Of a stretch of 64,000 nt of DNA, positions 5,996 to 62,972 are shown in pieces (position 1 is the stretch's first letter; every line of letters begins with the position of its first letter). The position numbers were made by a program, and so were the translations under genes. The notes under the pieces are model-generated. The model ran no database searches. It was not told where the DNA came from and saw nothing but the letters and a program-made list of their open reading frames with translations. Location of the stretch: contig CM000155.2 of NCBI GenBank assembly GCA_000004695.1, positions 1,696,001-1,760,000 on the forward strand. Reading direction: 5' to 3'. This stretch comes from Dictyostelium discoideum. Lineage: Eukaryota.

Positions 5996-6356
5996 TTAAT
6001 TAAATTTTTTTTTTTATTTTTTATTTTTTATTTTTTTTTATTTTATTTTTTTATTTTAAAAAAAAACAAAAGATTCTTAATTTATTAAAATTAATCTTGA
6101 TTAGATTTTTTTTTTTTTTGGTTTTCGTTTTGGTTTACTGTGTGTTTGTTGAGGTTTTTGTATTAAAAGGTTGAGGTTTTTGTATTAAAAGGTTGAGGTG
6201 TATTTGTGTGTGTGTATGTGTGTTGATGTTTTGTTGACGTTTTTGCAGTTTTATGTAAAAATTTTACAATTGATTATTTCTTTTTATTGTTTTTTTATTT
6301 TTATTATTTATTATTTATTTATTATTTATTTTTATATAATTTGAAGTATATTATAT

Positions 6357-6674
6357 TTAATCCAACATTCCTTCTGGTAAAGCATCATCTGGATTATCGG
6401 TACCTTTTTCAGTTTCTTCTAAATCAGCTGATAAACATTTATAAGCTGGAGTAAGGAAAAGTGCTGCAAATGTAACTGTAACCCATGTCATATTTAAAAT
6501 TTTTCTAGTTGTGAAACAAACCAAATTTGCTGAACTAACAATAATATTTCCTAATGTTTTGTTGGTGCTTAATCTACTAAAAAATCCAACTGAAGGTTTT
6601 GGTGTTTCGTGAGATGTAGTTGCTGGTAATGATTTATTTTTTTTGGTTGGTTTCTTTGTTAATCCTTTTGCCAT
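6357..6674 (-). CDS. Hypothetical 105-aa small membrane protein with a basic N-terminus, one predicted transmembrane helix and an acidic C-terminal tail
   Basis: A clean ATG..TAA ORF with noticeably higher GC and codon bias than the flanking sequence. It lies between the two TRE3-like copies. No family was recognised. Confidence 0.4.
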   Translation of the reverse strand: MAKGLTKKPTKKNKSLPATTSHETPKPSVGFFSRLSTNKTLGNIIVSSANLVCFTTRKILNMTWVTVTFAALFLTPAYKCLSADLEETEKGTDNPDDALPEGMLD

Positions 6675-6764
6675 TTTTACTAATTATATATATATATATG
6701 TTGAGGTGATTTAAATATTATTTGTGTGTTTGTTCCTCCAAATTTTAAAATTTTTTTTTTTTTT

Positions 6765-6956
6765 TTTTTTTTGATATAAATAAACTATTGTAGTATACAA
6801 TTAGTATGTTATTTTTATTTATTTATTTTAGGTTTTTTAGTTTTTGTGAATTTAAAATAGTATGTTATTTTAGATTAGGTAATTAATAATTAATTGGTGG
6901 TGTAATTGTTGGAATTGGTTCATTAGTGTTTATGCTCCATTCTTTTTTAAATTTTT

Positions 6957-6997
<41 letters not shown>

Positions 6998-7118
6998 TGG
7001 ATTAACAAGATTGATATATCTACCTATTTTTGATTGTTTCGGACCATTGGGTTTCTTTTTGAGTTTTTGTGAGGTTGTTTTTAATTGAGTATTGGTTAAA
7101 GTTTGATAGTGTTCTTGA

Positions 7119-7126
<8 letters not shown>
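6765..7126 (-). mobile_element. Second, short 3' fragment of the same TRE3-like element, interrupted at 6961-7030 by a (T)32 tract plus the 3' terminus of a different TRE-like element
   Basis: 6769-6960 and 6993-7126 are near-identical to 3556-3850. The inserted stretch aatattggattaacaagattgatatat preceded by poly(T) is the same sequence found at 63248-63300, the 3' end of the element at the tRNA-Ser locus. Confidence 0.65.
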
Positions 7127-7154
<28 letters not shown>

Positions 7155-7203
7155 ATTATTTTTTTTTTTTACCTAAAAGCGGTGTAAAGAGTGGGGAGAT
7201 CCG

Positions 7204-7244
<41 letters not shown>

Positions 7245-7274
7245 ATTATAAACAAAAGATTTTAAAAAAAAATT

Positions 7275-7347
7275 CGCCCAAAGGGGGGCTCGAACCCCCG
7301 ACCACAAGGTTAAAAGCCTTGCGCTCTACCGACTGAGCTATCTGGGC
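7275..7347 (-). tRNA. tRNA-Lys (anticodon UUU)
   Basis: The reverse complement folds as a cloverleaf: acceptor stem GCCCAGA/TTTGGGC with discriminator G, D-arm GCTCAGTCGGTAGAGC, anticodon stem CAAGG/CCTTG with loop CTTTTAA, T-arm GGGGGTTCGAGCCCCC. Length is 73 nt with no encoded CCA. Confidence 0.9.
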
Positions 7348-8174
7348 ATTTTATTAGAATTATTTTCTTAATATAAGATTTTATAGAGTATATATATAAT
7401 ATAACTAGTATCTCAAAGCAATTAAAAATATCAAATTGTTGGTATTGAGTTATTAAAAAGAATCGTGTTATTTATTTCTTCGTTTTAATTTATCATTCTG
7501 TTATACAATAAGTTAATTTGTAAAGTAAATTTATTTAGGGTGTAATCAAATTTAAAAAATATAAAAAAATAAATGAAAAAAAAAAAAAAAAAAAGTGAAC
7601 TTTTGGGTAAAACGTACGTTAAACATTACAAGGGTTACAACAAAATGACCCTATATAGATTTTTATTTTTTTTTATTTTTTTTGAATTTTTTTTTAAATT
7701 TTTTTTTTGAATTTTTTTTTTTTAATTTTATTTTTAAATTAAATTTGATACCAAAGATAAACAAATGAGCTGTTTAAAAAAAAAAAATAAAAATAAAAAT
7801 AAAAAAAAAAATAAAAATAAAAAATAACTAATAAATTTCAAACAGAAATAATAACAATAATAATAATCTAGATTTATTATAAAAATTAAGAAATCCTATT
7901 AATAATAATAAATAAAATTTTTTTTTTATTTTTTTTTTTTTGTTTTGGTTGTCCCCCTTTTTAATTCATTGTTAATTTTTTATTTATTTATTTTCTATTT
8001 ATTTTTTATTTTTTTATTTTTTTTTTTTGTTCACTTAAATATATTTATATATATATAATAATTATTGAATAAATAAAAAAAAAAAGGCGGGTTGGGTGAA
8101 CAAAAAAAAAAAAAAAAAAATTATTTATTTAATTATTTATTTAATTTTAATTTAAAAAAAAAAAAAAAAAAAAA

Positions 8175-12600: not shown

Positions 12601-14848
<2,248 letters not shown>

Positions 14849-14860
14849 TATGTTGGGGGG

Positions 14861-14925
<65 letters not shown>

Positions 14926-15272
14926 AGTAATTAATAATTCAAATAGTTAAATAGTCATTAATTAAAATTTTGATAGTTTGACTATTTAATTTTATTATTT
15001 TTTTAAAAAATATATTTAAAAATTAAATAAAAATAAATCAAAAAAAAAAAAAAAAAAAAAAAAAACATAAAGTCAATTGATTTACCATAAAGTTCAAAAT
15101 TCCACAAAAACATATTTTTTCTTTGAATCATCAAAAAAAAAAAAATCTATTTTAATTTTTATTTTTTTTATTTTTTTATTTTTTTTTGGTCATCATAAAT
15201 CAGAAATTCTAATTTTAAAAAAAAAACAAAAATAGTTAAATAAATAAAAAAAAAAAAAAAAAAATTTAAAAA

Positions 15273-15824
15273 ATGACAACTAAATACATAGTTTTGGTTA
15301 GAGCACTTAGTACAAAGATTAAAATGAAAGATTTAAAAGATCAATTAGAAAAGATTAAAGGATTTAAAAATTTAAAAACATTTTTTACAACTGGAAATAT
15401 TATTGTGGATGTACAACAAACAATGACTAAAAAAGAAGTTTGTATGGAGATTTCAAATGTTCTATCAAATGAATACCAAATGGAGAAACCATTGATGGCA
15501 ATTTTCAATATTGAAGAATATAATGATATATTATCATCAAACCCATATGAAAAATCAAATGAAACTAAAACTGTGATTTTCTTTCCAATTAATGAATTTT
15601 TAAAACAATCTGATTGTGATAAAGATAAAGATTTCATGACAAAATCATCTCAATGGCAATTAGTAAATGGTGTCATTTGGTATTTAGGTCCAACAACTGG
15701 TACTGCTTCTGATGTTAAAATTTTTAAATTAATTGAAAAAAAGATAAAACCAGGTTCAAATCATGAATATACATTTCGTACTTTAAGATCAAGTCAAAAA
15801 ATATTAGATACTGCAAATAAATAA
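15273..15824 (+). CDS. DUF1697-family protein (bacterial-type), 183 aa, intronless
   Basis: The N-terminus KYIVLVRALSTKIKMKDLKDQLEKIKGFKNLKTFFTTGNIIVD matches the DUF1697 signature (yIaLLRGINVGGkn.vkMaeL...l...Gf..V.TyiqSGNvvf). Its length is typical for the family, about 180 aa. It is flanked by long poly(A) tracts like other Dictyostelium genes. Confidence 0.55.
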   Translation: MTTKYIVLVRALSTKIKMKDLKDQLEKIKGFKNLKTFFTTGNIIVDVQQTMTKKEVCMEISNVLSNEYQMEKPLMAIFNIEEYNDILSSNPYEKSNETKTVIFFPINEFLKQSDCDKDKDFMTKSSQWQLVNGVIWYLGPTTGTASDVKIFKLIEKKIKPGSNHEYTFRTLRSSQKILDTANK

Positions 15825-16189
15825 AATAAAGTAAAAATAAAATAAAGTAAAATAAAATAAAATTAAATAAAATAAAATAAAATAAAATAAATAAATTATT
15901 TATTTATTTTTTTTATTTTATTTTTTATTTTTACTTTATTATTATTATTTTTTCTATAACAAAATTAATTTTTTCAGTTTTTTAAAAAAAAAAAAAAAGA
16001 TTTGTTTTTTTTTTTTTCTCTTTTGGTAATTTAATTTTTTACTTTATTATTTTTTTTTTTTTTTTTTTAATTAATTATTTTGTTTTTCCTTTTCTCCAAA
16101 TATAAACTTTTTTATTTTTTTTGTTTTTTATAATTTTGTTTTACTTTTTCTATTATATATATTTTTTTTTTATTATCAAATATAACACA

Positions 16190-17578
16190 ATGGAAAATAA
16201 CTATTTTTGCACAATAAATGATTTATTATTAGATACATCACTGATTGTTGATGAATATTCATGTCCTCTTTGTAATCAAATATTATATAAAGCTGAAATT
16301 TATCAATGTAAAGAGGTATGAAGTTGAAATAGTAAAAAAAAAAAAAAAATTTAATTTCTAGATTTTAATGAAAGTAAAAAAAAAAAAAAAAAAACTAATT
16401 TTTCATTTTTTTTTTTTTTTTTCTGTTTCAACAAAAAAAAAAAAAAAAAAAAAAAAAATTATTGGGGATTTTGGAATTGTAAAGAATGTTGGTTAGATTT
16501 AATAACAGAAGGTGAGCAGCGTAAAGATTGTAAATGTATAATTCAATCAATTAATGATTTATCAAGATCAATATTCATTGAAAATAAATTTTCAAATCAA
16601 AAAATAAATTGTCCATTTTCATTTTCATATATAAAGAAAGATTATCAATATATTGGAGGTAGTGGTGATGATGATGATGATTATGATGATGAAAATGATT
16701 CAATACCATTAATTAAAGATAAAGAGAATGGATGTAAACAAATAATTACAGTGGAAGAATTAGATACACATTTAAAACAATGTCAATTTAAATTTGTTGA
16801 ATGTCCAAATAAAAAGAATGGTTGTGAAATTCAATTTAGATTTAACAAATTAGAGATTCTAAAAGATCATGAACAAATATGTGATTCAAGATTTGAAAAA
16901 TGTAAACATTGTTTAGAATTAATTGTATTTAAAAATTTAAATTCTCATCAAGATCAATGTATTAAAACATTAATTGAGTGTATTAGTTGTAAAAGTCACA
17001 TTGAAAGAGGAAAATTGAAAAAACATTTAAATCTAAATTGTCCAAATGAAATCGTTGATTGTGCATTCAAAGCCAATGGTTGTAATGATCAAATGAAAAG
17101 AGTCGATCTATCACAACATTTATTAATTTCAAAACATATGTTATTCATTTCAGAATCGATTGAAAAACAGCAAAATCAAATCCAACATACTAAAAGAAAA
17201 TATTTAAAATTAAAAAGAAAAATTCAAGAAATTAATGAAAATTCAATTAATAAAATTTATGAAAATGATTGGTTCATAAAGAATTTTACAAAATCAAAAA
17301 AAAAAGTTGGTTCTTTTTTTTTAGGTCCTGAATTTAAAATTGGTTCTTTTGAATTTGGTTTATCATTGTATCCAAATGGTAGAATTGATACATTTGAAAA
17401 TCATTTAGTAATTGCATTATTTGAAAAAAGTGGTCTTTATAAATCAGTAACTGTAGAATCTGATTTTACATTAATTAATAAAGAAGAATCTGATAATAAT
17501 AATAAAAACTATTTTTTTGAAAATTGTAAGTTAAAACTAAATTATTTTAATAAAAAATTCTATACAAATTCTAATTAA
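16190..17578 (+). CDS. TRAF-like protein: N-terminal RING-type zinc finger, zf-TRAF repeats and a C-terminal MATH domain
   Basis: Exon 1 is 16190..16315 (MENNYFCTINDLLLDTSLIVDEYSCPLCNQILYKAEIYQCKE, donor GTATGA). The coding frame resumes by about 16463 (WGFWNCKECWLDLITEGEQRKDCKC...) and is open to 17578. zf-TRAF motifs include CPNKKNGCEIQFRF..HEQIC. The MATH domain shows NDWFIKNFTK...FGLSLYPNG. The exon-2 acceptor is unclear because a 26-nt A run precedes it. Confidence 0.65.
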
Positions 17579-20835: not shown

Positions 20836-21007
20836 TAACCAAACTCACAAAGATTAAAATTTACCAATCATTTTATAACCAAGACACTATCTTGATTTTT
20901 TTTTTTTTTTTATTTTTTTTTTTTTTTAAAAGTTGCTGTTTATCCATTTAATTTTTAATTATTTAATACTTTTTTTTTTTTTTTTTTTTCTTTATTCTTA
21001 CTAAATT

Positions 21008-21046
<39 letters not shown>

Positions 21047-21074
21047 TTATTTTTGTATAAAAAGTGAAATAAAA

Positions 21075-24000
21075 ATGATTGAAAGTCAAAGGGAATTTAA
21101 TTGTATTGGTGGTGATAATCAGAATGGTGTCGCAGTTATTGGTGTAGGTTTTAAAATCCCATTAGATCTAGAAAATTGTTTATCAAGTCCAAGTGAATTA
21201 TATTCAGCATTATTTAATGAATTTGATAGTGTAACAAAGAATACAAGTTCACGTTGGTCTGATAACTATTTTAAAAATGGTGATATTGTTAGTCTTAGTG
21301 CAGGTTTATTACCACTCAGAGAAATTAAATCATTTGATCCAACTTTTTTCGGTATTAATCCATCCGATGCAGATTTAATTGATCCTCAACAAAGATTATT
21401 ATTAAAATGTAACTTTTTTTTATTTTATTTTTATTTTTATTTTTTTATTATTAACAAATTTAATTAAATAAATATATTAGGTGTTTGGAATGCATTAGAA
21501 GATGGTGGTATTGACCCAATCAGTATTCGTTCATCAGATACTAGTGTCTACATTGGTTGTTCAACTATTGACTATTTTCTTTTAAATAGAAATCCTGTTG
21601 ATCCTCATAATCATGGTATTCAAACCGCAAGTTATTCAATTCCAAATAGAATATCATATTGCTTTGATTTTAGAGGTGAAAGTTTGTTTGTTGACACTGC
21701 ATGTTCATCATCACTAAATGCAGTTCATCTTGGTTACAATTCAATTATAAATTTAAAATCAAAATTATCAATTGTTGGTGGTTCCAATTTAATTTTAGGT
21801 ATGAATTATCTTTTTATTTATTTTTTTTTTTTTTTTTTTTTTGTACTATTATTAATATTATTATTAATATTATTATTATTATTTTTATTTTACTGACATA
21901 TATATATTTCCTAGATCCACAAAATAGTATTTTTTTTTCTAAACAACAGGTGAATGGTCCAAGTGGTAAATGTAATAGTTTTTCAGAAGAAGCAGATGGC
22001 TTTGTTCGTAGTGAGACAGTTGGTGTAGTAGTATTAAAGAATTTAAAAGATGCAATTAAAGATGGTGATAGAATTTATTGTGTAATTCAAGGTTCAAATT
22101 CAAATGTTGACGGAAATTATGAAAAATTAAATTATATTTCACCTTCAAAATTATCACAAGCTGAAAATATTACCAAAGCATTAAAATCAACAAATGGTGC
22201 GGTGAATGCATCTGATATTGATTATTTCGAATGTCACGGTACTGGTACACCAACTGGAGATCCAATCGAATTAGAAGGTATATCAATTGCATTAAATAGA
22301 ACTCAACAATCTACAACATTATCAAATCCACTTTTAATAGGTTCAATTAAATCAAATATTGGTCATGGTGAGGCAAGTAGTGGTATAGCCAGTTTAATTA
22401 AATGTTGTGTAATGTTTAAATATCGTCAATTTTTACCAAATATTAATTTCAAAACACCAAATCCATTAATCAAATTTAAAGAATGGAATTTAAAAGTTGT
22501 AACTGAACCAGTTCCATTCAATAATAATAAACAAACTATTATGGCAATTAATAATTTTGGTGTTTCTGGTAAGATTTTAATATAACAATAATAAGAGCAA
22601 AACAAGATAATCAAACTACTAATATTTACTATTTTTTATTTTTATTAAATAGGATCAAATTGTTGTATTATTTTATCAGAATATAAAAGTAATAACAACA
22701 ATAATAATGATTTTAAAGCAACAACACATTTAAAATCAAAGAAATTTATTATACCATTTTCATCAAATTCCTCAACATCATTAGACAATTATAAATCATT
22801 ACTTTCAAATGAAACAAATAATTTTCAAGATTTTGTTATTAAACAAATTAATAATAAATCAACATCATTAATTCAAAGATCAGTAATCATTGCAAGTAAT
22901 TGGAGTGAATTTAATGAGTCATCAAATGAAATTCAATCAAATATTAAAAAATCAATTATATCTAATATCACAATTAAAAAAAAGAATGCAGTTACAGTAT
23001 TTGTATTTTGTGGTCAAGGTTCGCAATATAATAAAATGGCATTATCATTATATGAAAATGAACACATTTTCAAATCAACAATGGATAAATTAGATAAAGA
23101 ACTATCCAAACACTATGGGTATTCAATTTTAGAAAAATTAAGATCAATTACAGATGAAGATTTAGTAACAATTCATCAACCAATTTTAGCAATTCCAGTT
23201 AATGTAATGGTTCAAGTATCTCTATATGAATTGTATAAACATTGGGGTATTAAATCAGATATTATGGTTGGTCATTCGTTTGGAGAAATCGCTTGCTCTT
23301 ATTGCTCTGGTATGGTTGATTTTAAAACATTATGTTATTTAACATACCACAGATCAGTAGCTCAGAATAAAACAATTGGATCAGGTAAAATGTTATCAAT
23401 TAATATTGGTGCTAAAGAATACTTGGATTCTTATTCAACTAAATATCCATCGGTAGAAATCGCATGTTATAATAGTGAAACATCAATCGTTATTGCAGGC
23501 AATGAAGAATTATTAAATGAAATTTCAAAAGATTTAAAATCAAAAGATATTTTTACAGCAATGTTACCATCATTATCAGCATTTCATACAACACACCAAT
23601 CAGTTATTAAAGATGATATTTGCTCATTGAATTTTAAATCGACATTATCAAAAATAACAGTATTTTCCACAGTCACATCTAATCAGTTTGGTATTAATAA
23701 TAATAATAATAATAATAATAATCAACTTAATTCAAATTACCTTTTTCAAAATGTTATTCAACCAGTTAAATTTAGTGAGACAATATCAAATATATATAAA
23801 TACATTGAATCAAATGATATGGGTAATGAAATAACATTTATTGAAATTGCACCACACCCAACATTACAATATTATTTAAATCAAATGAAGTCACAACAAT
23901 CAGAATACTTTAATAATGGTGAAAAGATTTCAATCTATTCAGCATGTAATAAAAAGAAGAATGATTATAATGAATTTTTAAAAACAATTTCAACATTGTT

Positions 24001-26504
24001 TGTAAATGGTTATAATAATATTAATTTTAAATCTCAAATTATTAATAATAATAATAATGATAATAATAATAATTTTAATTTACCATTATATCAATGGGAT
24101 GATAATGAATATTATAAAATTCATCCAACATGGAAAAAAGCAAATAAAAATGGACCATCAATTAATCATCTTGGAAATCTAAATGATTCTTCAATTAAAT
24201 CATTTAAAACCTATATTAATACAAGAAAACCACAATTCCAATGGTTAAAAGGTCATTCTTTAAAAGGAAAAGTTGTATTCCCTGGTATGGGTTATATTTC
24301 AAATTTACTCTCAGTTTATAATATGAACCAAGATATTACAATTAATGAAATTCAATTCAAAAGTGCATTTATTTTAGTCGATGGTGTTAATAACTGTTTA
24401 GAGACATCGATTGTACCATTAACAAAGAATGAATTCAATATTAAATTTCATTTTAAAGATTTAAAAACAAATAAATGGGTATTATGTGCAAATGCTAATT
24501 ATAGTTTATTTAAACATAATGATAATAATGATAAACTTGATATTGAAAAATTAAAATCTAATTGTAATTATACAATAATTTCAAAAGATGAATTATATAA
24601 TAATATTAGAGCTAAAAGTGGATTGATTTATAAAGGTTTATTTCAAGGTGTTAAAGAAGCTTTCATTGGTAATAGATGTTCGTTAACAGTTTTATCATTA
24701 AATGAAATTGAAAACCAACAAGAGTTTAAACATTTATTAGAGAATAGAAACTTCAATTCATTATTTAATACAGCAATTTTAGATTCATGTTTACATGGTT
24801 CACTTCACTCAAAAGAACAATCTCAAATTTATTTTGACAAATGTGAAGGTTTTAAATATTATTCAAACAATATTAATTTAGCAACTTCGAAAAGAAATGA
24901 GTACAAAGAGATTAATGTTTATATTGAAACGAATCCCGTGATCAATTCAACAGTTATTGTAAGTTTAAAAATTATGTTACCAGATGGAACATTATTAATT
25001 GAAATTCAAAAAGTAGTTTGTAAATCATCAATACCAATTATTGATAGTACCTCAGTTATTCAACCATCACCAAAAGATTTACACACACCATATTATCAAC
25101 CAAAAAACTCATTAATTAAACCACCACAATCATTTAAACATTTACATTGTATGAAAGAATTTGCAAGTATAGAATCTGATAATAGAGAAATGGTGTATAT
25201 GTCAATTTATCATTTAATTTTTAAAGCCATCAATGCTAGATCTCCAACAAAAATCAATTTAGAATCCCTTGAAAATTTAACATTAGATCAATTTAAAGAA
25301 TTAATAAAAGACAGTGCAGCAAATATTCAACGTTCCAATCAATTTATATATGAATGTTTAAAACTATACCATACAAATCATTCAAATTATAAAAAAAATC
25401 AAATTAAAGATTTTATTAAAGAATGTGAAGATTTTAATGGATATAATCAAATAATTTTTAAAACAATTAAAATCTATGCAAAATCATTATTCCCATTACC
25501 AGATGACGATCCATTTACAGATACAATTCAATCATTGTTTGAAGATGATCAATTAGAAAACGTTTACATCCATTTAAAACACCTTTATCCAGTAAACAAT
25601 TTATTAAGTGAAATCGTTTTTCAATCAATTAAACCAATAATAAATCAAACATCAACATTTAGAATTTTAGAAATAGGAGCAGGTTATGGTACAATCTCAC
25701 AATTAATATTTGACAAACTCGAACAACTATTAGCAGATAATTTCACATCATCAAGAATTGATATAGAATATACATTTACTGATATTTCAAATACTTTCTT
25801 ACCAAGAGCAAAAGAGAGATATTCAAAATATAAAAGATTCAACATAATTTACAAACTCTTAGATTTAGAACTTCCTTTAACAGAGGGAATTCAAGATTTT
25901 AGACCATTATATTATGATATAGTTGTTATGTCAAATGTTTTACATGTTGTAAAAGATATTAATTTCAGTACAAATGAAATCTATAAAGTTTTAAAACAAA
26001 ATGGTCAATTAATATTTGTAGAACCAACATATAAAAATTTATATCTTGATACTATATTTGGCATATTTCCACAAGTAAGTAGTTATTAATATTTATTATT
26101 ATCTATTTATTAATCTAATATATTTTTTTTTGTAAGTGGTGGTCATTTAATGATGATATTAGAACTGATAGATGTTGTCTTGAACCTTCAAAATGGTTTG
26201 AATTTTTAGAAACAATTAATTTTAAAGATACAATTATTTTGGGTCAAGATAACAAAGAAATCTTGAAAAATGTTGAAAATTCAATAATATTAGTACAAAC
26301 TAGAAAACCATCACAACTTGAATTATCGATAAATAATTCACCATCAACCAACCAATTCAAATCTTTTGAAAACATAATATTATATACTGATGATAACCAA
26401 CAACCAAATGATTGTAGTGAAATTATCGATTTATTAAAATCATTAGAACTACCAATTAAAATAATTAACAATATAGACCAATTTAATCAAATTATTAAAA
26501 CACA

Positions 26505-26571
<67 letters not shown>

Positions 26572-29454
26572 AATAACAATTTAATAATATTTTTAAAATC
26601 AGTTAATCAATTAAATACTAATAATTATAAAGATATTACATTTGAATATGTTCAAATCAATCAAATTTTAGTAAAATTAGAACTTGAAGAAAATTATAAA
26701 TTATTATTAATAACTAATAATTCTCAATCAAGTAATTATTTATCAAATTCATTAATTGGTACATCAAGATATTTATTTGCAGATATAGTATCATCAAAAT
26801 TAGATATTATTACAATTGATTTCGATACCGTTTCAATTAAGAACCATCAAAATGTTATATCAGTTATTAACCATTTATTAGATTCAAAAGATAATAGTGA
26901 AAGAGAATATTATATTATTAATAATGAAATTAATATTGAAAGATATAAAAATGAATCAAATATTAAACATCAATTAAAATCAAAAACCTTTCAAGAAAAT
27001 AAAGATGAATTAATGGTACAATTAGACTCAAATTTAGAATATAGATTAAAATCAAAATCAAAACAAGAATTAAAATCAACTCATGTTGAAATTCAAGTTA
27101 AAGCAATTGGAATTAATTATAAAGATTATGCAACTTACAGTGGTTTAATCGATTCAATCATAGAAATTGATAAAGATAAAGAAAAGGATGAAAATTATGA
27201 CCAAAATTATCCAAGTATTGGTAATGATTTTAGTGGTGTAATTACAAGAATTGGTAGTGATGTTAGAAAGTTTAAAGTTGGTGATGAAGTATGTGGTTTA
27301 GCACCTAAAACATCCGCTTCACATATTATCACTGAAGAAGGTTATCTTTGTAAGAAACCATCAAACATTAGTCACTCTGAAGCTGCATCATCAGTAACAG
27401 TTTACACAACATCATTTCAAAGTATTTATAGCATTGGTGATTTAAAGAAAAATGAAACCATATTAATTCATTCAGGTAGCGGTGGTATTGGTTTATCTGC
27501 ATTGGAAATATTAAAATGGAAAAATCATCAAGGTTACATATTTGCAACTGTAGGCTCTGAAGATAAAGTTAAATATTTAACAGATACCTATGGTTCATTC
27601 ATAACTGGTATATATTCATCCAGAGATAAGGACTATCAAGATCAAATTAAAGAGAAATTAAAATCATTAGGTTGCGATATCGATCATCAAGGAGTAGATC
27701 TAATATTGAATACACTATCAGTAGAGTACATGGATTCAAATTTTAAATGTTTAAATCAAAAAGGTAGATGTATTGATCTTTCAATCACTCATTTAACTCC
27801 ATTTGATTATATGGATTATAATAAATTCAAATTCAATGTTTCCTATGGTAATATTGAACTTGTTGTATTACCATCCAAAATTATTAAAGATCATTTAAAA
27901 AAGATGCTTAAAGCCTTTTCATTAGGTAGTTTAAGATTTATACCTATTGTTGAATTTTCAAATTTGAATATAAGAAATGCAGTCGAATACATTAATCAAC
28001 GTAAACATATTGGTAAAATTGTAGTAAAGAATGATGTTGATTTTATAAATAAATTATTTATTGAACAACAACAACAACAAAACTCTGTTGAAAATAATGA
28101 AATTTTAATGAAAGATAAATATGATATTTCAAATTTAGAACTTGGTAAAAATATATTATTAACTGGTCAAACAGGTATTATTTTAACTATATTAAAATGG
28201 TTATATAAACATTCAAATAATTCAATTGAAAATATTATTATAATTTCCAAATCAAAATTAAAATGGGAATTAGAATTATTTATAAATGAATCAACTAATA
28301 ATAGAATTAAAATTCATTATAAACAAGCTGACGTTGGTAATAATAATGAATTAAATCAGTGCTTTGAAGAATTAAGATTACGACATTCAATTGAAGATAT
28401 TAATTCAATTTTCCATTTTGCATTTATTAATGATATTGGTCAATTTGAAGATGTTAATATGAATCGTATGGATATCGCTCATCATGCTAAAGCAATTGGT
28501 TCACTTAATTTACATAACCAATCTATTGAACGTAAATGGAATATTAAACAATTTGTATTGGCATCTTCGGCGTTATCAGTATTTGGTGGAGACAACCAAT
28601 GTTGTTATATCAGTGCTTGTTCAGTTTTAGACTCCTTATCAAAGTATAGAAAATCAATTGGTCTTCCATCTTTATCAATTAACTTTGGTGGTGTAACATC
28701 AACTGGTTTCGTATCTCGTAGTGGTGCTGTCGAAGCTAACCTTGAAAGTTCTATTATCAATTTAATTACACCACAATCATTAATTTCTTCATTGGATTTA
28801 TTTATTCAAAACTCTCAAACCTTTTCAAACTATACTCATTTCAATTTCATATATGATAATATAGAATCATATTCACTCAACAGAATGTTATTTAAATTTG
28901 ACTATTTAATCAACCAACATTCCTCATTAGTTTCAAATAAAAGATTAGGTGGAATAAATGAAAATAATAATATTGGTGATTTATTAGTATCAAAAATTGG
29001 TGAACTTTTATCAATTGAGCCATCAAAATTGAATTTAGATTTTAGATTAGTTGGTAAGTTTTGTTTTTTTTTATTTATAATTTTTATTTTATTATTACTA
29101 ATCTTTTCTAAAAATTAATAAATAAAATTAGATTATGGTTTAGATTCATTGGTTATCGTTCAACTTAAAAATTTTATTGATAAACAATTCCAACCTCATT
29201 TAATTTCAATTTTACAATTACAAAATAATAAAATCTCAACAACAATAGAAATTATAATCAAAGGATATAATAATAATCAAAATAAAAAAATTAAAAATGA
29301 ACAATCAAATGACATTCCAAGTGTAGTTCAAAAAGAAACTATCAAAGATAACAATGAAAATAAAGACGATATAAAAATCGATATGGATGATAAAAAAGAA
29401 AATTTAAAAGGTAAAAAAGAGAATATTGATGACAAAAAAGAAAATAACAATTAG
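21075..29454 (+). CDS. Type I iterative, highly reducing polyketide synthase with domain order KS-AT-DH-CMeT-ER-KR-ACP (copy 1, apparently intact)
   Basis: Six exons are proposed: 21075..21408, 21481..21798, 21915..22568, 22652..26074, 26137..29053, 29132..29454. Domain motifs seen: KS ([10 protein letters not shown]|[25 protein letters not shown]|[30 protein letters not shown]); AT (GHSFGE); CMeT ([12 protein letters not shown]); ER ([13 protein letters not shown]); KR ([10 protein letters not shown]); ACP ([12 protein letters not shown]). Intron donors are GTAACT, GTATGA, GTAAGA and GTAAGT, all with AG acceptors. Confidence 0.85.
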
Positions 29455-30128
29455 CCATAATTTCAAAATCGTTAGTTTTATAAAGTTTTTGTATTCAAAA
29501 CAATAATTAAAAAATAAAGTGATAATAATTTTACAAAAAATATTGTTACAAAAAAACAAAGATTAACCAAAAAAATTGATTTAATTAAATGGTTTTATTA
29601 TTTATTTTTTTTTTTTTAAAATTTAATTAATTTATAAAATTATACTTCATTTTTTAAAAAGATAAATTAGTGGGGGGACAAATTAATGGTCATTTTCTTT
29701 TTTTAAAATTCCTTATTTTCTCTTATTATTACTATATAGAGTTTAAATATTTTTTTATTTTTTTTTTTTTTTTTTTTTATTAAACCAAAATAGGGGCAAA
29801 AAAAACAAAAATACAAAAAAATTATTATTTTTTTTTTTTTTTATTTGCCATTTTCACCACAAAATAACATTACTACATAAAAATAAATAAATAAATAATT
29901 TTTTTTTTTTTTTATTTCAAAAACCGTTCTTGTGTTAAATCGAAATGGGCTTGTAGAATTTAAAAATGATAGTAAGTTTATTACAATATTGGGTGTTTGA
30001 AATTTTTTTTTTTTTTTCTATTTATTTTATTTTTAATTTAATGTTTTAATACCTTTTTTTTTATTTTTTTTTTAATTAGTTTATTTATTTATTTATTATT
30101 TTAGTATATCATATTAAGTGGAATACAA

Positions 30129-33100
30129 ATGATTAAAAGTCAAAGAGAATTTAATTGCATTTGCGGTGATAATCAAAATGGTGTCGCAGTTATTGGTGTA
30201 GGTTTTAAAATACCATCAGATCAAGAGAATTGTTTATCAAGTCCAAGTGAATTATATTCCGCATTATTGAATGAATTTGATGGTGTAAAAAATGATACAA
30301 GTACGCGTTGGTCTGATAACTATTTTAAAAATGGTGATATTGTTAGTAATAGTGCAGGTTTATTACCACTCAAAGAAATTAAATCATTTGATCCAACTTT
30401 TTTCGGTATTAATCCATCAGATACTGATTTAATTGATCCTCAACAAAGATTATTATTAAAATGTAACTTTTTTTTATTTTATTTTTTATTTTTATTTTTT
30501 AATGTAAATTATTATTAACAATTTTAATTTATTTAAAAAATTATATATATATTATTATTATTAGGTGTTTGGAATGCATTAGAAGATGGTGGTATTGACC
30601 CAATCAGTATTCGTTCATCAGATACTAGTGTCTACATTGGTTGTTCGAATATCGATTATTATCTTTTAAATAGAAATCTTATTGATCCTCATAATCATGG
30701 TATTCAAACTGCAGGTTATTCAATTCCAAATAGAATATCATATTGCTTTGATTTTAGAGGTGAAAGTTTGTTTGTTGACACTGCATGTTCATCATCACTA
30801 AATGCAGTTCATCTTGGTTACAATTCAATTTTAAATTCAAAATCAAAATTATCAATTGTTGGTGGCTCAAATTTAATTTTAGGTATGAATTATCTTTTTA
30901 TTTTTATTCGGTTATTATAATTTATTATAATTTATATTATTATTATTATTATTATTTTATTTTATTTTTTATAAATACTAACATATATATAATTTCTAGA
31001 TTCACAAAATAGTATTTTTTTTTTCTAAACAACAGGTGAATGGTCCAAGTGGTAAATGTAATAGTTTTTCAGAAGAAGCAGATGGCTTTGTTCGTAGTGA
31101 AACAGTTGGTGCGATAGTATTAAAGAATTTAAAAGATGCAATTAAAGATGGCGATAGAATTTATTGTGTAATTCAAGGTTCAAATTCAAATGTTGACGGA
31201 AATTATGAAAAATTAAATTATATTTCACCTTCAAAATTATCACAAGCTGAAAATATTACCAAAGCATTAAAATCAACAAATGGTACAGTCAATGCATCTG
31301 ATATTGATTATTTCGAATGTCACGGTACTGGTACACCAATCGGAGATCCAATTGAATTAGAAGGTATATCAATTGCATTAAATAGAACTGAACAATCTAC
31401 AACATTATCAAATCCACTTTTAATAGGTTCAATTAAATCAAATATTGGTCATTGTGAAGCAAGTAGTGGTATGGCCAGTTTAATTAAATGTTGTGTAATG
31501 TTTAAATATCGTCAATTTTTACCAAATATTAATTTCAAAACACCAAATCCATTAATCAAATTTAAAGAATGGAATTTAAAAGTTGTAACTGAACCAGTTC
31601 CATTCAATAATAATAAACAAACTATTATGGCAATTAATAATTTTGGTGTTTCTGGTAAGATTTTATTATAAAAATAATAAGAACAAAAATAAATCATCTA
31701 ATATTTACTATTGTTTATTTTTATTAAATAGGATCAAATTGTTGAATTATTTTATCAGAATATAAAAATAATAATAATAATAATAATAACAATAACAATA
31801 ATGATTTTAAAGCAACAACAAATTTAAAATCAAAAAAATTTATTATACCATTTTCACCAAATTCATCAACATCATTAGACAATTATAAATCATTACTTTC
31901 AAATTTATCAAATGAAACAAATAATTTTCAAAATTTTGTTATTAAACAAATTAATAATAAATCAACATCATTAAATCAAAGATCAGTAATCATTGCAAGT
32001 AATTGGAGTGAATTTAATGAGTCATCAAATGAAATTCAATCAAATATTAAAAAATCAATTATATCTAATATCACAATTAAAAAAAAGAATGCAGTTACAG
32101 TATTTGTATTTTGTGGTCAAGGTTCACAATATAATAAAATGGTATTATCGTTATACGAAAATGAACAAGTTTTCAAATCAACAATGGATGAATTAGATAA
32201 AGAATTATCCAAACACTATGGGTATTCAATTTTAGAAAAATTAAGATCAATTACAGATAATGATTTAGTAACAATTCATCAACCAATTTTAGCAATTCCA
32301 GTTAATGTAATGGTTCAAGTATCTCTATATGAATTGTATAAACATTGGGGTATTAAATCAGATATTATGGTTGGTCATTCGTTTGGAGAAATCGCTTGCT
32401 CCTATTGCTCTGGTATGGTTGATTTTAAAACATTATGTTATTTAACATACCACAGATCAGTAGCTCAGAATAAAACAATTGGATCAGGTAAAATGTTATC
32501 AATTAATATTGGTGCTAAAGAATACTTGGATTCTGATTCAACTAAATATCCATCGGTAGAAATCGCATGTTATAATAGTGAAACATCAATCGTTATTGCA
32601 GGTAATGAAGAATTATTAAATGAAATTTCAAAAGATTTAAAATCAAAAGATATTTTTACATCAATGTTACCATCATTATCAGCATTTCATACAACACACC
32701 AATCAGTTATTAAAGATGATATTTGCTCATTGAATTTTAAATCAACATTATCAAAAATAGCAGTATTTTCCACAGTCACATCAAATCAGTTTGGTATTAA
32801 TAATAATAATAATAATCAATTTAATTCAAATTACCTTTTTCAAAATGTTATTCAACCAGTTAAATTTAGTGAAACAATATCAAATATATATAAATACATT
32901 GAATCAAACGATATGGGTAATGAAATTATATTTATTGAAATTGCACCACACCAAACTTTACAATATTATTTAAATCAAATGAAATCACAACAATCAGAAT
33001 ACTTTAATAATGGTGAAAAGATTTCAATCTATTCAGTATGTAATAAAAAGAAAAATGATTATAATGAATTTTTAAAAACAATTTCAACATTGTTTGTAAA

Positions 33101-33134
33101 TGGATATAATAATATTAATTTTAAATCTCAAATT

Positions 33135-33170
<36 letters not shown>

Positions 33171-36100
33171 TTTAATTTACCATTATATCAATGGGATGAT
33201 AATGAATATTATAAAATTCATCCAACATGGAAAAAAGCAAATAAAAATGGACCATCAATTAATCATCTTGGAAATCTAAATGATTCTTCAATTAAATCAT
33301 TTAAAACCTATATTAATACAAGAAAACCACAATTCCAATGGTTAAAAGGTCATTCTTTAAAAGGAAAAGTTGTATTCCCTGGTATGGGTTATATTTCAAA
33401 TTTACTCTCAGTTTATAATATGAACCAAGATATTACAATTAATGAAATTCAATTTAAAAGTGCATTTATTTTAGTCAATGGTGTCAATAACTGTTTAGAG
33501 ACATCAATTATACCATTAACAAAGAATGAATTCAATATTAAATTTCATTTCAAAGATTTAAAAACAAATAAATGGGTATTATGTGCAAATGCAAACTATA
33601 GTTTATTTAAACATAATCAAAATAATGATAATAAATTTGATATTGAAAAATTAAAATCTAATTGTAATTATACAATAATTTCAAAAGATGAATTATATAA
33701 TAATATTAGAGCGAAATGTAGATTAACCTTTAAAGGTTTATTTCAAGGTGTTAAAGAAGCTTTCATTGGTAATAGATGTTCATTAACAGTTTTATCATTA
33801 AATGAAATTGAAAACCAACAAGAGTTTAAACATTTATTAGAGAATAGAAACTTTAATTCATTATTCAATACAGCAATTTTAGATTCATGTTTACATGGTT
33901 CACTTCACTCAAATGAACAAGCTCAATTTTATTTTGACAAATGTGAAGGTTTTAAATATTATTCAAACAATATTAATTTAGCAACTTCAAAAATAGATGA
34001 ATATAAAGAGATTTATGTTTATAATGAAACGAATCCCGTGATCAATTCAACACTTTTTGCAAGTTTAAAAATTATGTTACCAGATGGAACATTATTAATT
34101 GAAATTCAAAAAGTAGTTTTCAAATCATCAATAACAATTATTGATAGTACCTCAGTTATTCAACCATCACCAAAAGATTTACACACACCATATTATCAAC
34201 CAAAAGATTCATTAATTAAACCACCACAATCATTTAAACATTTACATTGTATGAAAGAATTTACAAGTATGGAATCTGATAATATAGAAATGCTTAATAT
34301 GTCAATTTATCATTTAATGTTTAGAGTTATCAATGCTAGATCTCCAACAAAAATCAATTTAGAATCCCTTGAAAATTTAACATTAGATCAATTTAAAGAG
34401 TTATTAAAAGACTGTGCAGCAAATATTCAACGTTCCAATCAATTTATATATGAATGTTTAAAACTATACCATACAAATTATTCAAATTATAAAATAAATG
34501 AACTTGAAGATTTTATAAAACAAAGTGAAGATTTTAATGGATATAATCAAATAATTTTTAAAGCAATTAAAATCTATGCAAAATTATTCCCATTACCAGA
34601 TGACGATCCATTTACAGATACAATTCAATCATTGTTTAAAGATGATCAATTAGAAAGTGTATACTTCCATTCAAAACACCTTTATCCAGTAAACAATTTA
34701 TTAAGTGAAATCGTTTTTCAATCAATTAAACCAATAATAAATCAAACATCAACATTTAGAATTTTAGAAATAGGAGCAGGTTATGGTTCAATCTCACAAT
34801 TAATATTTGATAAACTCGAACAACTTTTAGCAGATAATTTCACATCATCAAGAATTGATATAGAATATACATTTACTGATATTTCAAATACTTTCTTATC
34901 AAAAGCAAAAGAGAGATATTCAAAATATAAAAGATTCAATATAATTTACAAATTATTAGATTTAGAACTTCCTTTAACAGAAGGTTTTCAAGATTTTAAA
35001 CCAAAATATTATGATATAGTTGTTATGTCAATGGTTTTACATGTTGTAAAAGATATTAATTTCAGTACAAATGAAATATATAAAGTTTTAAAACAAAATG
35101 GTCAATTAATATTTGTAGAACCAACATATAAAAATTTATATATTGATACTATATTGGGTATATTCCCTCAAGTAAGTAGTTTTTTTAATATTTATTATTA
35201 TCTTTTATTAAAATTATTTTTATTTTTATTTTTTAGTGGTGGTCATTTAATGATGATATTAGAACTGATAGATGTTGTCTTGAACCTTCAAAATGGTTTG
35301 AATTTTTAGAAACAATTAATTTTAAAGATACAATTATTTTAGGTCAAGATAATAAAGAAATCTTGAAAAATTTTGAAAATCCAATAATATTAGTACAAAC
35401 TAGAAAACCATCACAACTTGAATTATCGATAAATAATTCACCATCAATCAAGCAATTTAAATCTTTTGAAAACATAATATTATATACTGATGATAATCAA
35501 CAACGAAATGATTGTAGTGAAATTATCGATTTATTAAAATCATTTGAACTACCAATTAAAATAATTAACAAAATAAATCAATTTAAACAATTTATTAAAT
35601 CACAATCTAATAAAAATAATAATACTATTAATAACAACTTAATAATATTTTTGAAATCAGTTAATCAATTAAATATTAATAATTATGAAGATATTACATT
35701 CGAATATGTTCAAATCAATCAAATTTTAGTAAAATTAGAACTTGAAGAAAATTATAAATTAATATTATTAACTAATAATTCTCAATCAAGTAATTATTTA
35801 TCAATTCATTAATTGGTACATCAAGATATTTATTTGCAGATATAGTCTCATTGAAATTAGATATTATTTCAATTGATTTCGATACAGTTTCAATTAAGAA
35901 CCATCAAAATGTTATATCAGTTATTAACCATTTATTAGATTCAAAAGATAATAGTGAAAGAGAATATTATATTATTAATAATGAAATTAATATTGAAAGA
36001 TATAAAAATGAATCAAATATTAAACATCAATTAAAATCAAAAACCTTTCAAGAAAATAAAGATGAATTAATTGTACAATTAGACTCAAATTTAGAATATA

Positions 36101-38513
36101 GATTAAAATCAAAATCAAAACAAGAATTAAAATCAACTCATGTTGAAATACAAGTTAAAGCAATTGGAATTAATTATAAAGACTATGCAACTTACAGTGG
36201 TTTAATCGATTCAATCATAGAAATTGATAAAGATAAAGAAAAGGATGAAAATTATGACCCAAATTACCCAAGTATTGGTAATGATTTTAGTGGTATAATT
36301 ACAAGAATTGGTAATGATGTTAGAAAGTTTAAAGTTGGTGATGAAGTATGTGGCTTAGCACCTAAAACATCTGCCTCACATATTATCATTGAAGAATTTC
36401 ATCTTTGTAAGAAACCATCAAACATAAGTCATTCTGAAGCTGCATCATCAGTAACAGTTTACACAACATCATTTCAAAGTATTTATAGCATTGGTGATTT
36501 AAAGAAAAATGAAACCATATTAATTCATTCAGGTAGCGGTGGTATTGGTTTATCCGCATTGGAAATATTAAAATGGAAAAATCATCAAGGTTACATATTT
36601 GCGACTGTAGGCTCTGAAGAAAAAGTTAAATATTTAACAGATACCTATGGTTCATTCATAACTGGTATCTATTCATCCAGAGATAAGAACTATCAAGATC
36701 AAATAAAAGAGAAATTAAAATCATTAGGTTGCGATATCGATCATCAAGGAGTAGATCTAATATTGAATACATTATCAGTAGAATATATGGATTCAAATTT
36801 CAAATGTTAAAATCAAAAAGGTAGATGTATTGATCTTTCAATCACTCATTTAACTCCATTTGATTATATGGATTATAATAAATTCAAATTCAATGTTTCC
36901 TATGGTAATATTGAACTTGTTGTATTACCATCCAAAATTATTAAATATCATTTAAAAAAGATGCTCAAATCCTTTTCATCAGGTAGTTTAAGATTTATAC
37001 CAATTGTAGAATTTTCAAATTTGAATATAAGAAATGCAGTCGAATACATTAATCAACGTAAACATATTGGTAAAATTGTAGTAAAGAATGATGTTGATTT
37101 TATAAATAAATTATTTATTGAACAACAACAACAACAACAACAAAACTCTGTTGAAAATAATGAAATTTTAATGAAAGATAAATATGATATTTCAAATTTA
37201 GAACTTGGTAAAAATATATTATTAACTGGTCAAACAGGTATTATTTTAACTATATTAAAATGGTTATATAAACATTCAAATAATTCAATTGAAAATATTA
37301 TTATAATTTCTAAGTCAAAATTAAAATGGGAATTAGAATTATTTATAAATGAATCAACTAATAATAGAATCAAAATTCATTATAAACAAGCTGACGTTGG
37401 TAATAATAATGAATTAAATCAGTGCTTTGAAGAATTAAGATTACGACATTCAATTGAAGATATTAATTCAATTTTCCATTTTGCATTTATTAATGATATT
37501 AGTCAATTTGAAGATGTTAATATGAATCGTATGGATATCGCTCATCATGCTAAAGCAATTGGTTCACTTAATTTACATAACCAATCTATTGAACGTAAAT
37601 GGAATATTAAAAAATTTGTATTGGCATCTTCGGCAACATCAGTATTTGGTGAAGAAAACCAATGTTGTTATATCAGTGCTTGTTCAGTTTTAGACTCCTT
37701 ATCAAAGTATAGAAAATCAATTTGTCTTCCATCTTTATCAATTAACTTTGGTGGTGTAACATCAACTGGTTTCGTATCTCGTAGTGATGCTGTCGAAGCT
37801 AACCTTGAAAGTTCTATTATCAATTTAATTACACCACAATCATTAATTTCTTCATTGGATTTATTTATTCAAAATTCTCAAACCTTTTCAAACTATTGTC
37901 ATTTCAATTTCCTATATGAAAATATAGAATCATATTCACTCAACAGAATGTTATTTAAATTTGACTATTTAATCAACCAACATTCTTCATTAGTTTCAAA
38001 TAAAAGATTAGGTGGAATAAATGAAAATAATAATATTGGTGATTTATTAGTATCAAAAATTGGTGAACTTTTATCAATTGAACCATCAAAATTGAATTTA
38101 GATTAGTTGGTAAGTTCTGTATTTTTAATATATTTATTTATAATTTTTATTTTATTACTAATCTTTCTAAAAATTAATTAAAAATTAGATTATGGTTTAG
38201 ATTCATTGGTTATCGTTCAACTTAAAAATTTTATTGATAAACAATTCCAACCTCATTTAATTTCAATTTTACAATTACAAAATAATAAAATCTCAAAAAT
38301 AATTCAAATTATAATCAAAGGATATAATAATAATCAAATTAAAAAAATTTGAAATGAACAATCAAATGAAATACCAAGTGTAGTTCAAAACGAAAATGCA
38401 GAAAATAGATGATAACAAAGAAAACTAAAGAAGATAAAATGAAAAAAATGAAAATAAAAATGGGATAATAGACAAACAAAAAGAAAAATTATAAAGATAT
38501 AAAAAAAGAATAA
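30129..38513 (+). pseudogene. Tandem duplicate (copy 2) of the upstream PKS, with several frame-disrupting lesions; likely a pseudogene
   Basis: It is near-identical to copy 1 through KS-AT-DH-CMeT (30129..35309). Lesions: T10 instead of T9 in exon 3 (about 31006-31025), consistent with the ORF track restarting at 31036; a 1-nt deletion near 35800 that gives the stop ending ORF 35363..35812; a 1-nt deletion near 36805 (tgtttaaat becomes tgttaaaat, a stop); a 7-nt deletion near 38100; and a divergent last exon with stops (38186-38513). The ORF track shows the region split into 35363..35812, 35851..36810 and 36868..38106. Confidence 0.7.
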
Positions 38514-62890: not shown

Positions 62891-62972
62891 GACATCGTAG
62901 CGAAGTGGTCTAACGCGTTTGACTTGAAATCAAATCTCCTAGGAGGCGCAGGTTCGAACCCTGCCGATGTCG
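62891..62972 (+). tRNA. tRNA-Ser (anticodon UGA)
   Basis: Acceptor GACATCG/CGATGTC with discriminator G; anticodon stem TTTGA/TCAAA with loop CTTGAAA; long variable arm TCTCCTAGGAGGCG; T-arm GCAGGTTCGAACCCTGC. Length is 82 nt. Confidence 0.9.

Follow-up and report, generated by a model that had tools for sequence, protein, structure and literature searches.

A DUF1697 gene of Dictyostelium discoideum with a shortened beta1-alpha1 loop: a probable ancient acquisition from bacteria

Results

An intact DUF1697 gene in typical Dictyostelium DNA

We analyzed a 64-kb stretch of D. discoideum DNA (contig CM000155.2, pos. 1,696,001–1,760,000; hereafter the window), for which the original prediction, made from the sequence alone, had proposed an intronless gene of the bacterial DUF1697 family (Table 1). 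The ORF listing of the window revealed 183 codons, from ATG to TAA, at exactly 15273–15824 (+). The product is identical to DDB_G0292482 of D. discoideum AX4 (XP_629647.1; UniProt Q54D49), and the exact sequence sits in AX4 chromosome-scale contigs. A search against Pfam PF08002 (DUF1697) bore out the family assignment with 74.6 bits (E = 1.3e-20), three times the gathering cut-off of 24.4 bits; other dictyostelid homologues scored 49.8–96.4 bits and one bacterial member 132 bits. Residues 3–136 aligned to positions 2–137 of the 137-position profile in a single unbroken stretch, and therefore no intron is needed in DDB_G0292482, as had been predicted. The DUF1697 annotation itself is already public, under the UniRef name "DUF1697 domain-containing protein".

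The protein has the stand-alone two-domain fold of about 170–185 aa known from SP0830. Profile search matched it to the SP0830 structure (PDB 2HIY) with E = 3e-23, whereas a PDB search with the protein as a single sequence returned no match. The AlphaFold model (pLDDT 83.8, pTM 0.83) likewise consists of two domains. In the alignment its N-terminus coincides with that of the bacterial relatives, and the protein therefore carries no targeting presequence; it is presumably cytosolic.

Table 1 Features of the DUF1697 locus and other features of the window
Feature	Position	Strand	Description and basis
tRNA-Lys(UUU)	7274..7348	-	
692-codon ORF	12770..14848	+	Directly upstream of the DUF1697 gene
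Upstream intergenic region	14849..15272	+	Presumed promoter and 5'UTR; 10.4% GC, poly(A) runs
CDS of DDB_G0292482	15273..15824	+	Complete single-exon CDS of a DUF1697 protein, 183 aa plus TAA; ORF listing, Pfam PF08002, exact protein match
N-terminal domain	15273..15542	+	Ferredoxin-like beta-alpha-beta-beta-alpha-beta, about residues 1–90; AlphaFold model
beta1-alpha1 loop	15300..15323	+	R10-A-L-S-T-K-I-K replaces R-G-I-N-V-G-G, 4 residues shorter; alignments
beta2-turn-beta3 motif	15378..15398	+	T-F-F-T-T-G-N here, T-Y-I-Q-S-G-N in bacteria; alignments
C-terminal domain	15552..15821	+	alpha+beta, about residues 94–183; contains a low-confidence loop, residues 143–146
C-terminal motif	15768..15791	+	Y-T167-F-R169-T-L-R-S here, T-x-R-N-x-x-T in bacteria; alignment
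Downstream intergenic region	15825..16189	+	Presumed 3'UTR and terminator; about 7.7% GC, AAATAA-type repeats
TRAF zinc-finger/MATH gene	16190..17578	+	Two exons
Polyketide synthase gene, copy 1	20970..29338		Tandem duplicate of about 8.4 kb
Polyketide synthase gene, copy 2	30011..38395		Tandem duplicate of about 8.4 kb
tRNA-Ser(UGA)	62891..62972	+	

Both flanks of the gene are extreme-AT DNA typical of Dictyostelium intergenic regions, and 5' of the ATG the sequence includes poly(A) tracts of 63, 26 and 19 nt. The coding sequence exhibited 24.6% GC and a GC3 of 13.6%, compared with a mean GC3 of 13.7% for 11 neighboring ORFs, and its relative synonymous codon usage (RSCU) correlated with theirs at r = 0.95. 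Both the intergenic setting and the native AT-rich codon usage had been described correctly in the original prediction.

The ORF directly upstream contains extremely long polyglutamine/Q-rich repeat tracts followed by a C-terminal half without repeats. No second DUF1697 copy was found within the 64-kb window. The tandem polyketide synthase copies are 94–96% identical and encode KS, AT, DH, methyltransferase, ER and KR domains. Between the DUF1697 gene and the LRR gene of D. firmibasis, this block appears to be missing. The tRNA-Lys region is 97% identical to that of D. firmibasis, far more than the DNA around it.

Dictyostelid orthologues are maintained by purifying selection

Orthologues of DDB_G0292482 were found in other dictyostelids, namely D. 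cf. discoideum (99% identity), D. citrinum (89%), D. firmibasis (84%), D. purpureum (52%) and D. dimigraforme, with more distant homologues in Polysphondylium violaceum and Tieghemostelium lacteum (group 3). At least six dictyostelid species carry the gene in chromosome-scale assemblies, with the reading frame undisrupted over its full length, and it consists of one exon at each of the five loci retrieved (D. firmibasis, D. citrinum, D. purpureum, P. violaceum and T. lacteum). The loci lie on large eukaryotic contigs among p450, glycosyltransferase, TRAF/MATH, Arf, AP5B1, Kelch and actin genes; the D. purpureum orthologue P0004 (DICPUDRAFT_86453), for example, sits between p450 and glycosyltransferase genes on the 131.9-kb scaffold GL870972. 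The upstream gene order is common to the window, D. citrinum and D. firmibasis, and the downstream TRAF gene also matches in D. citrinum; no gene order was shared between the window and D. purpureum within 10 kb on either side. Group-4 species carry two or three DUF1697 paralogues each, the second gene of D. purpureum being DICPUDRAFT_26132.

Nei-Gojobori analysis gave dN/dS values of 0.19 for D. discoideum/D. citrinum, 0.23 for D. discoideum/D. firmibasis and 0.19 for D. citrinum/D. firmibasis, from 28–37 synonymous and 27–38 non-synonymous differences over 105 and 444 sites, respectively. These values indicate purifying selection on DDB_G0292482, and 93 residues are invariant in a five-sequence alignment that includes D. 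purpureum. Judged from these comparisons, DDB_G0292482 is a real, selectively maintained nuclear gene of social amoebae.

Relatives outside Dictyostelia are mostly bacterial

An exhaustive HMMER search with a profile of the group-4 orthologues against 1.84 billion cluster representatives returned 242 matches at E ≤ 1e-3. The top matches were all dictyostelid and included DICPUDRAFT_26132, further D. cf. discoideum genes, T. lacteum and P. violaceum, as well as the EukProt protein P0019, which looks dictyostelid. The first matches after these belonged to Bacteroidota, namely a metagenome-assembled genome and Aureivirga. Two word-indexed profile searches gave 4181 and 1339 matches, and among the best 120 of each all named non-dictyostelids were bacterial, overwhelmingly Flavobacteriaceae and other Bacteroidota, plus Paenibacillus. 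The search with 4181 matches did not list four dictyostelid proteins of its own query alignment (P0009, P0010, P0011 and P0013); absences from this word-indexed tool therefore carry little weight, and we relied on the exhaustive search. Among the named best 120–150 matches of the three large searches there was no animal, plant, fungal or other amoebozoan protein, most metagenome matches carrying no name.

A scan of GTDB with one genome per species located DUF1697 in Bacteroidota, Bacillota, Gammaproteobacteria, Actinomycetota, Chloroflexota and Acidobacteriota, as well as in Spirochaetota, Balneolaceae, Ignavibacteriales and Hydrogenedentota. The family also occurs on archaeal (Haladaptatus) plasmids. 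Plasmid records with DUF1697 numbered only 30 of 72,556, mostly megaplasmids or chromids, which speaks against a plasmid vector. A viral vector was likewise rejected: a scan of IMG/VR revealed no relative, a fold search of BFVD gave no match at E ≤ 0.001, and in a phage collection only four short unannotated "Listeria phage" fragments matched. With no viral copies and very few plasmid copies, no vector is therefore indicated.

The original prediction held the family to be almost exclusively bacterial. This is true of the named close relatives outside Dictyostelia among the best 120 of each list, but a few copies occur in other eukaryotes. PPERSA_00010290 of the ciliate Pseudocohnilembus persalinus was reported as a "PF08002 family protein" transferred from Bacteroidetes (PMC4614350). 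The metagenome protein P0108, which has a lysine-rich N-terminal extension, is encoded at 5001–5636 of a 9.2-kb contig with 26.6% GC (L085) that looks eukaryotic, with MIF4G and F-box-like genes adjoining and poly(A)/poly(T) intergenic tracts; from its sequence, P0108 may be an independent bacterial transfer. Further eukaryote-like metagenome matches were P0019, P0021, P0067, P0096, P0100 and P0130. Mentions of "PF08002" in Plasmodium papers were rejected as records of DUF1697, since these strings are most probably gene identifiers written as PF08_00xx.

Phylogeny and duplication of dictyostelid DUF1697

Neighbor-joining (NJ) trees were built from Kimura distances over 176 columns with 200 bootstraps. 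The dictyostelid sequences formed one clade in the trees of 90 taxa (bootstrap 87.5%) and 127 taxa (63.5%), but not in that of 105 taxa (46%), where two long branches intruded. The window gene and its orthologues formed clade A (72–93%), whereas P0288, P0289 and P0294 formed clade B (87.5%). P. violaceum and T. lacteum fell outside this group-4 duplication, and the internal order approximated the species tree. The pair of P. violaceum and P0019 sometimes split from the other dictyostelids. Clades A and B were closest to each other, with 40% identity, compared with 22–25% to bacteria.

A TRAF/MATH gene lies not only next to the window gene but also near the clade-B paralogue P0288 in D. cf. discoideum (locus L086, 1–773). 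We rejected a segmental duplication that included this neighbor, since the two TRAF proteins are only 29% identical; their proximity to both paralogues looks like a coincidence within a large gene family.

The dictyostelid cluster attached within bacterial diversity, at a point that varied with sampling and lay beside long-branch taxa; the long branches of Marinilactibacillus, P0018 and P0023 attached beside or inside the cluster. None of the three trees gave a consistently supported bacterial sister group. The phylogeny suggested along with the original prediction thus recovered a dictyostelid cluster (46–87.5%), but NJ did not settle the donor or the nesting within a bacterial clade. Dictyostelid–bacterium identity was 22–30%, lower than the 35% between bacterial phyla, and therefore allows great age or vertical descent. 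The affinity to Flavobacteriaceae and other Bacteroidota may be an effect of AT composition, because the Flavobacteriaceae DUF1697 genes themselves have 26–30% GC and the P. violaceum copy, the least AT-biased of the dictyostelids (38.5% GC), was closest to a Colwellia sequence. P0108 and its relative P0290 grouped with dictyostelids in only 0.5% of bootstraps and were up to 44% identical to Bacteroidota, a pattern that favors separate acquisitions over a common eukaryotic ancestor.

Clade A has lost the canonical loop

The most conserved parts of bacterial DUF1697 are L-R-G-I-N-V-G-G in the beta1-alpha1 loop, M18, L21, T-Y-I-Q-S-G-N, P91 and T-x-R-N-x-x-T near the C-terminus. In the loop, conservation in the bacterial set reached 91% at G11, 98% at N13, 95% at V14 and 98% at the loop Gly. 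The original prediction had credited the protein with the length and the N-terminal signature of the family; the length stood, but the signature did not. In its place is V-R-A-L-S-T, in which R10 is kept, G11, I12, N13 and V14 are replaced by A, L, S and T, respectively, and a four-residue deletion removes, among others, the 98%-conserved Gly. In the clade-A orthologues, G11, N13, V14 and the loop Gly correspond to A, S/P, T/P and a gap, again with R10 kept, and the deletion is common to D. citrinum, D. firmibasis and D. purpureum. The clade-B paralogues, T. lacteum and P. violaceum still carry the canonical loop. The protein thus lacks a hallmark of the family, one that lies outside its formal definition; its homology to DUF1697 holds, but its functional equivalence is in doubt.

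Other motifs were altered in part. T36, G41 and N42 are invariant across the family, whereas Y37, I38, Q39 and S40 are replaced by F, F, T and T in the window clade. At the C-terminus, T167 and R169 (94% and 98% in bacteria) are kept, and N170 and T173 are replaced by T and S in the same clade. The protein and clade A also keep M18, L21 and P91. The 100% conservation of TYIQSGN in the labelled bacterial set arises partly by construction, the peptide being the pattern of the GTDB scan; in the independently gathered alignment A3 the motif was still at least 90% conserved. QTGN, as opposed to the bacterial-majority QSGN, was present in all eukaryotic copies examined except P0019, which has QSGN.

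Functional clues from bacterial relatives

The neighborhoods of bacterial DUF1697 genes revealed no conserved operon, as 150 flanking genes from 80 bacterial loci matched 150 different Pfam families. The recurrent neighbors were TspO (11), FGGY (9), RidA (8) and FAD_binding_3 (8); their recurrence seems to stem from gene orders specific to a few related bacterial lineages rather than from an operon. GNAT genes made up 5 of the 150 neighbors, and in P. violaceum (locus L004) the DUF1697 gene, at 5807–6361 (-), stands head-to-head with a GNAT acetyltransferase gene at 6681–7202 (+); this adjacency in amoeba and bacteria is probably due to chance. Among bacterial members, P0135 (378 aa) bears about 200 additional N-terminal residues that form an extra domain, and the proteins of the Saprospiraceae/Roseivirga cluster to which P0109 (275 aa) belongs are extended at the N-terminus by about 95 residues, which include a hydrophobic segment; such fusions could serve as functional clues for the family.

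NCBIfam contained no model for the window protein or its relatives. A link to defense systems was rejected, since PADLOC gave only a chance-level Cas6 match for the window protein (15.9 bits, E = 0.002) and nothing for three of its relatives. In S. pneumoniae, SP_0830 has a Tn-seq profile like that of its purine-metabolism neighbor (bioRxiv 10.1101/2022.01.26.477867), which we take as a weak functional hint for DUF1697 and the only one in the literature searched. Our literature search found neither biochemical work on DUF1697 nor any mention of the identifier DDB_G0292482.

Discussion

We consider it probable that DDB_G0292482 goes back to one ancient bacterial capture followed by domestication and a group-4 duplication, the window gene being the divergent clade-A duplicate that lacks the Gly-rich loop. 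A single bacterial gene would have entered an ancestor common to at least the group-3, group-4 and violaceum-complex dictyostelids, and would then have been fully adapted to the amoeba genome, acquiring AT-rich codons and a setting of eukaryotic intergenic DNA. The presence of DUF1697 in T. lacteum and P. violaceum, outside group 4, implies that the acquisition predates the group-4 ancestor. Duplication at the base of group 4 would have produced clades A and B; the window gene, in clade A, would have retained the fold, R10, T36, G41, N42, T167 and R169 but lost the RGINVGG loop, which its sister paralogues in clade B (e.g., P0288) retain, as do bacteria. Native codons, conserved gene order, single exons and a dN/dS near 0.2 all argue for an old acquisition that has been domesticated rather than for contamination, and on this point the original prediction was upheld. 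Neither of the outcomes named beforehand as refuting it, a missing DUF1697 match or closest homologues spread widely among eukaryotes, was observed.

Ancient vertical inheritance is the alternative to which the sequence divergence lends itself. A DUF1697 gene of an early eukaryote or of the mitochondrial ancestor would have been lost nearly everywhere and have survived in dictyostelids and a few protists, in line with the ciliate gene (PMC4614350) and with P0108 on its AT-rich contig, with the QTGN motif common to all eukaryotic copies examined except P0019, and with the large distance from bacteria without a supported bacterial sister. However, QTGN is present in Bacteroidota too, P0108 and P0290 are much nearer to Bacteroidota than to dictyostelids, no animal, plant, fungal or other amoebozoan protein stood among the named top matches of the three large searches, the window protein has no mitochondrial presequence, and very many independent losses would be required; we therefore regard vertical descent as quite unlikely. 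Several separate transfers from bacteria, giving rise to clade A, clade B and the violaceum/lacteum types, seem quite improbable to us. Dictyostelid monophyly was supported by only 46–64% of bootstraps once taxa were added, and P. violaceum and P0019 at times stood apart from the rest, as such transfers would predict; yet two of the three point trees are monophyletic, with support of up to 87.5%, and in the third two long-branch taxa intrude. Moreover, violaceum and lacteum branch outside group 4, in approximate agreement with the species tree, and clades A and B are far closer to each other than to bacteria.

The loss of family-invariant residues (N13, the Gly loop, Q39 and N170) in a gene that was unmentioned in the literature searched might be read as the mark of a chance ORF or a decaying pseudogene without function. 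An ORF kept at full length in at least six species, with dN/dS of 0.19–0.23, a confident fold prediction and 93 invariant residues, makes this very improbable. Bacterial contamination or mis-assembly, which might come to mind for a bacterial family in an organism grown on bacteria, is excluded for a gene with 13.6% GC3 whose flanks of 8–10% GC carry Dictyostelium poly(A)/poly(T) tracts, and whose locus recurs with conserved neighbors in independent chromosome-scale assemblies of several species. Beyond the capture by dictyostelids, AT-rich bacterivorous protists (dictyostelids, the scuticociliate and the eukaryote of contig L085) might each have taken up DUF1697 independently from Bacteroidota-like prey, after which the window duplicate would have lost the ligand loop and gained a eukaryote-specific role. 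We find this extension conceivable but not likely; if true, the function would be recurrently useful to phagotrophs, for example in handling a bacterial metabolite or nucleotide.

As for a mechanism within the preferred reading of a single capture, the ligand site of ACT and HMA ferredoxin-like domains is the beta1-alpha1 loop. By analogy, the DUF1697 loop and the conserved Arg, Asn, Thr and Lys could jointly form an anion-binding pocket for phosphate or a nucleotide, and canonical DUF1697 proteins would be small-molecule binders or enzymes. The window paralogue, still under purifying selection, would then have been repurposed and might no longer recognize the ligand. We offer this mechanistic part, the loop as an anion-ligand site and the repurposing of the window paralogue alike, as a tentative suggestion that may well prove wrong.

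If the inference of a single capture is true, DDB_G0292482 would add one more domesticated bacterial gene to a short published Dictyostelium list, with an acquisition older than the group-3/group-4 split and subsequent duplication and divergence. It leaves the current understanding of gene transfer into amoebae unchanged; the mildly unexpected points are limited to the deletion of the loop in one paralogue and to the patchy distribution of the family among other bacterivorous protists. Under the same condition, Dictyostelium would offer a genetically tractable eukaryote in which to seek a phenotype for a large bacterial family, of which more than 4000 clusters at 90% identity were found.

Comparison with known systems

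The only solved structure of DUF1697 (PF08002), SP0830 of Streptococcus pneumoniae (PDB 2HIY), is 17% identical to the window protein in structural alignment. SP0830 has an intact RGINVGGKNK loop and a YINSGN motif, in contrast to the four-residue deletion and the substitutions in the window protein. The likeness to ACT and HMA domains is at the level of the fold only, without sequence homology or an MxCxxC metal motif, and the match to Pfam HMA_2 remained below threshold (14.8 vs 30 bits). PPERSA_00010290 of P. persalinus resembles the window gene, to judge from its published description only, in that it is a DUF1697 gene, belongs to a bacterivorous protist of AT-rich composition and finds its best bacterial match in Bacteroidetes (PMC4614350); its host belongs to a different eukaryotic supergroup from Dictyostelia.

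A close precedent is the set of 16 candidate bacterial-to-Dictyostelium genes in Table 2 of Sucgang et al. 2011, derived from 18 first proposed with the D. discoideum genome and including DUF885, DUF1121, DUF1289, DUF1294, ThyX, OsmC and BioY (PMC3188802). Neither DUF1697 nor DDB_G0292482 appears in that table (PMC3188802) or in a 2026 list for D. giganteum. As with those candidates, an otherwise bacterial Pfam family is represented by a native-looking D. discoideum gene with a D. purpureum orthologue, the last being a criterion of that study (here P0004, 52% identical). Unlike them, DUF1697 has been duplicated to two or three paralogues per group-4 species and is present outside group 4. The domain annotation is already public; the reading of DUF1697 as a probable bacterial transfer extends the known pattern by one gene.
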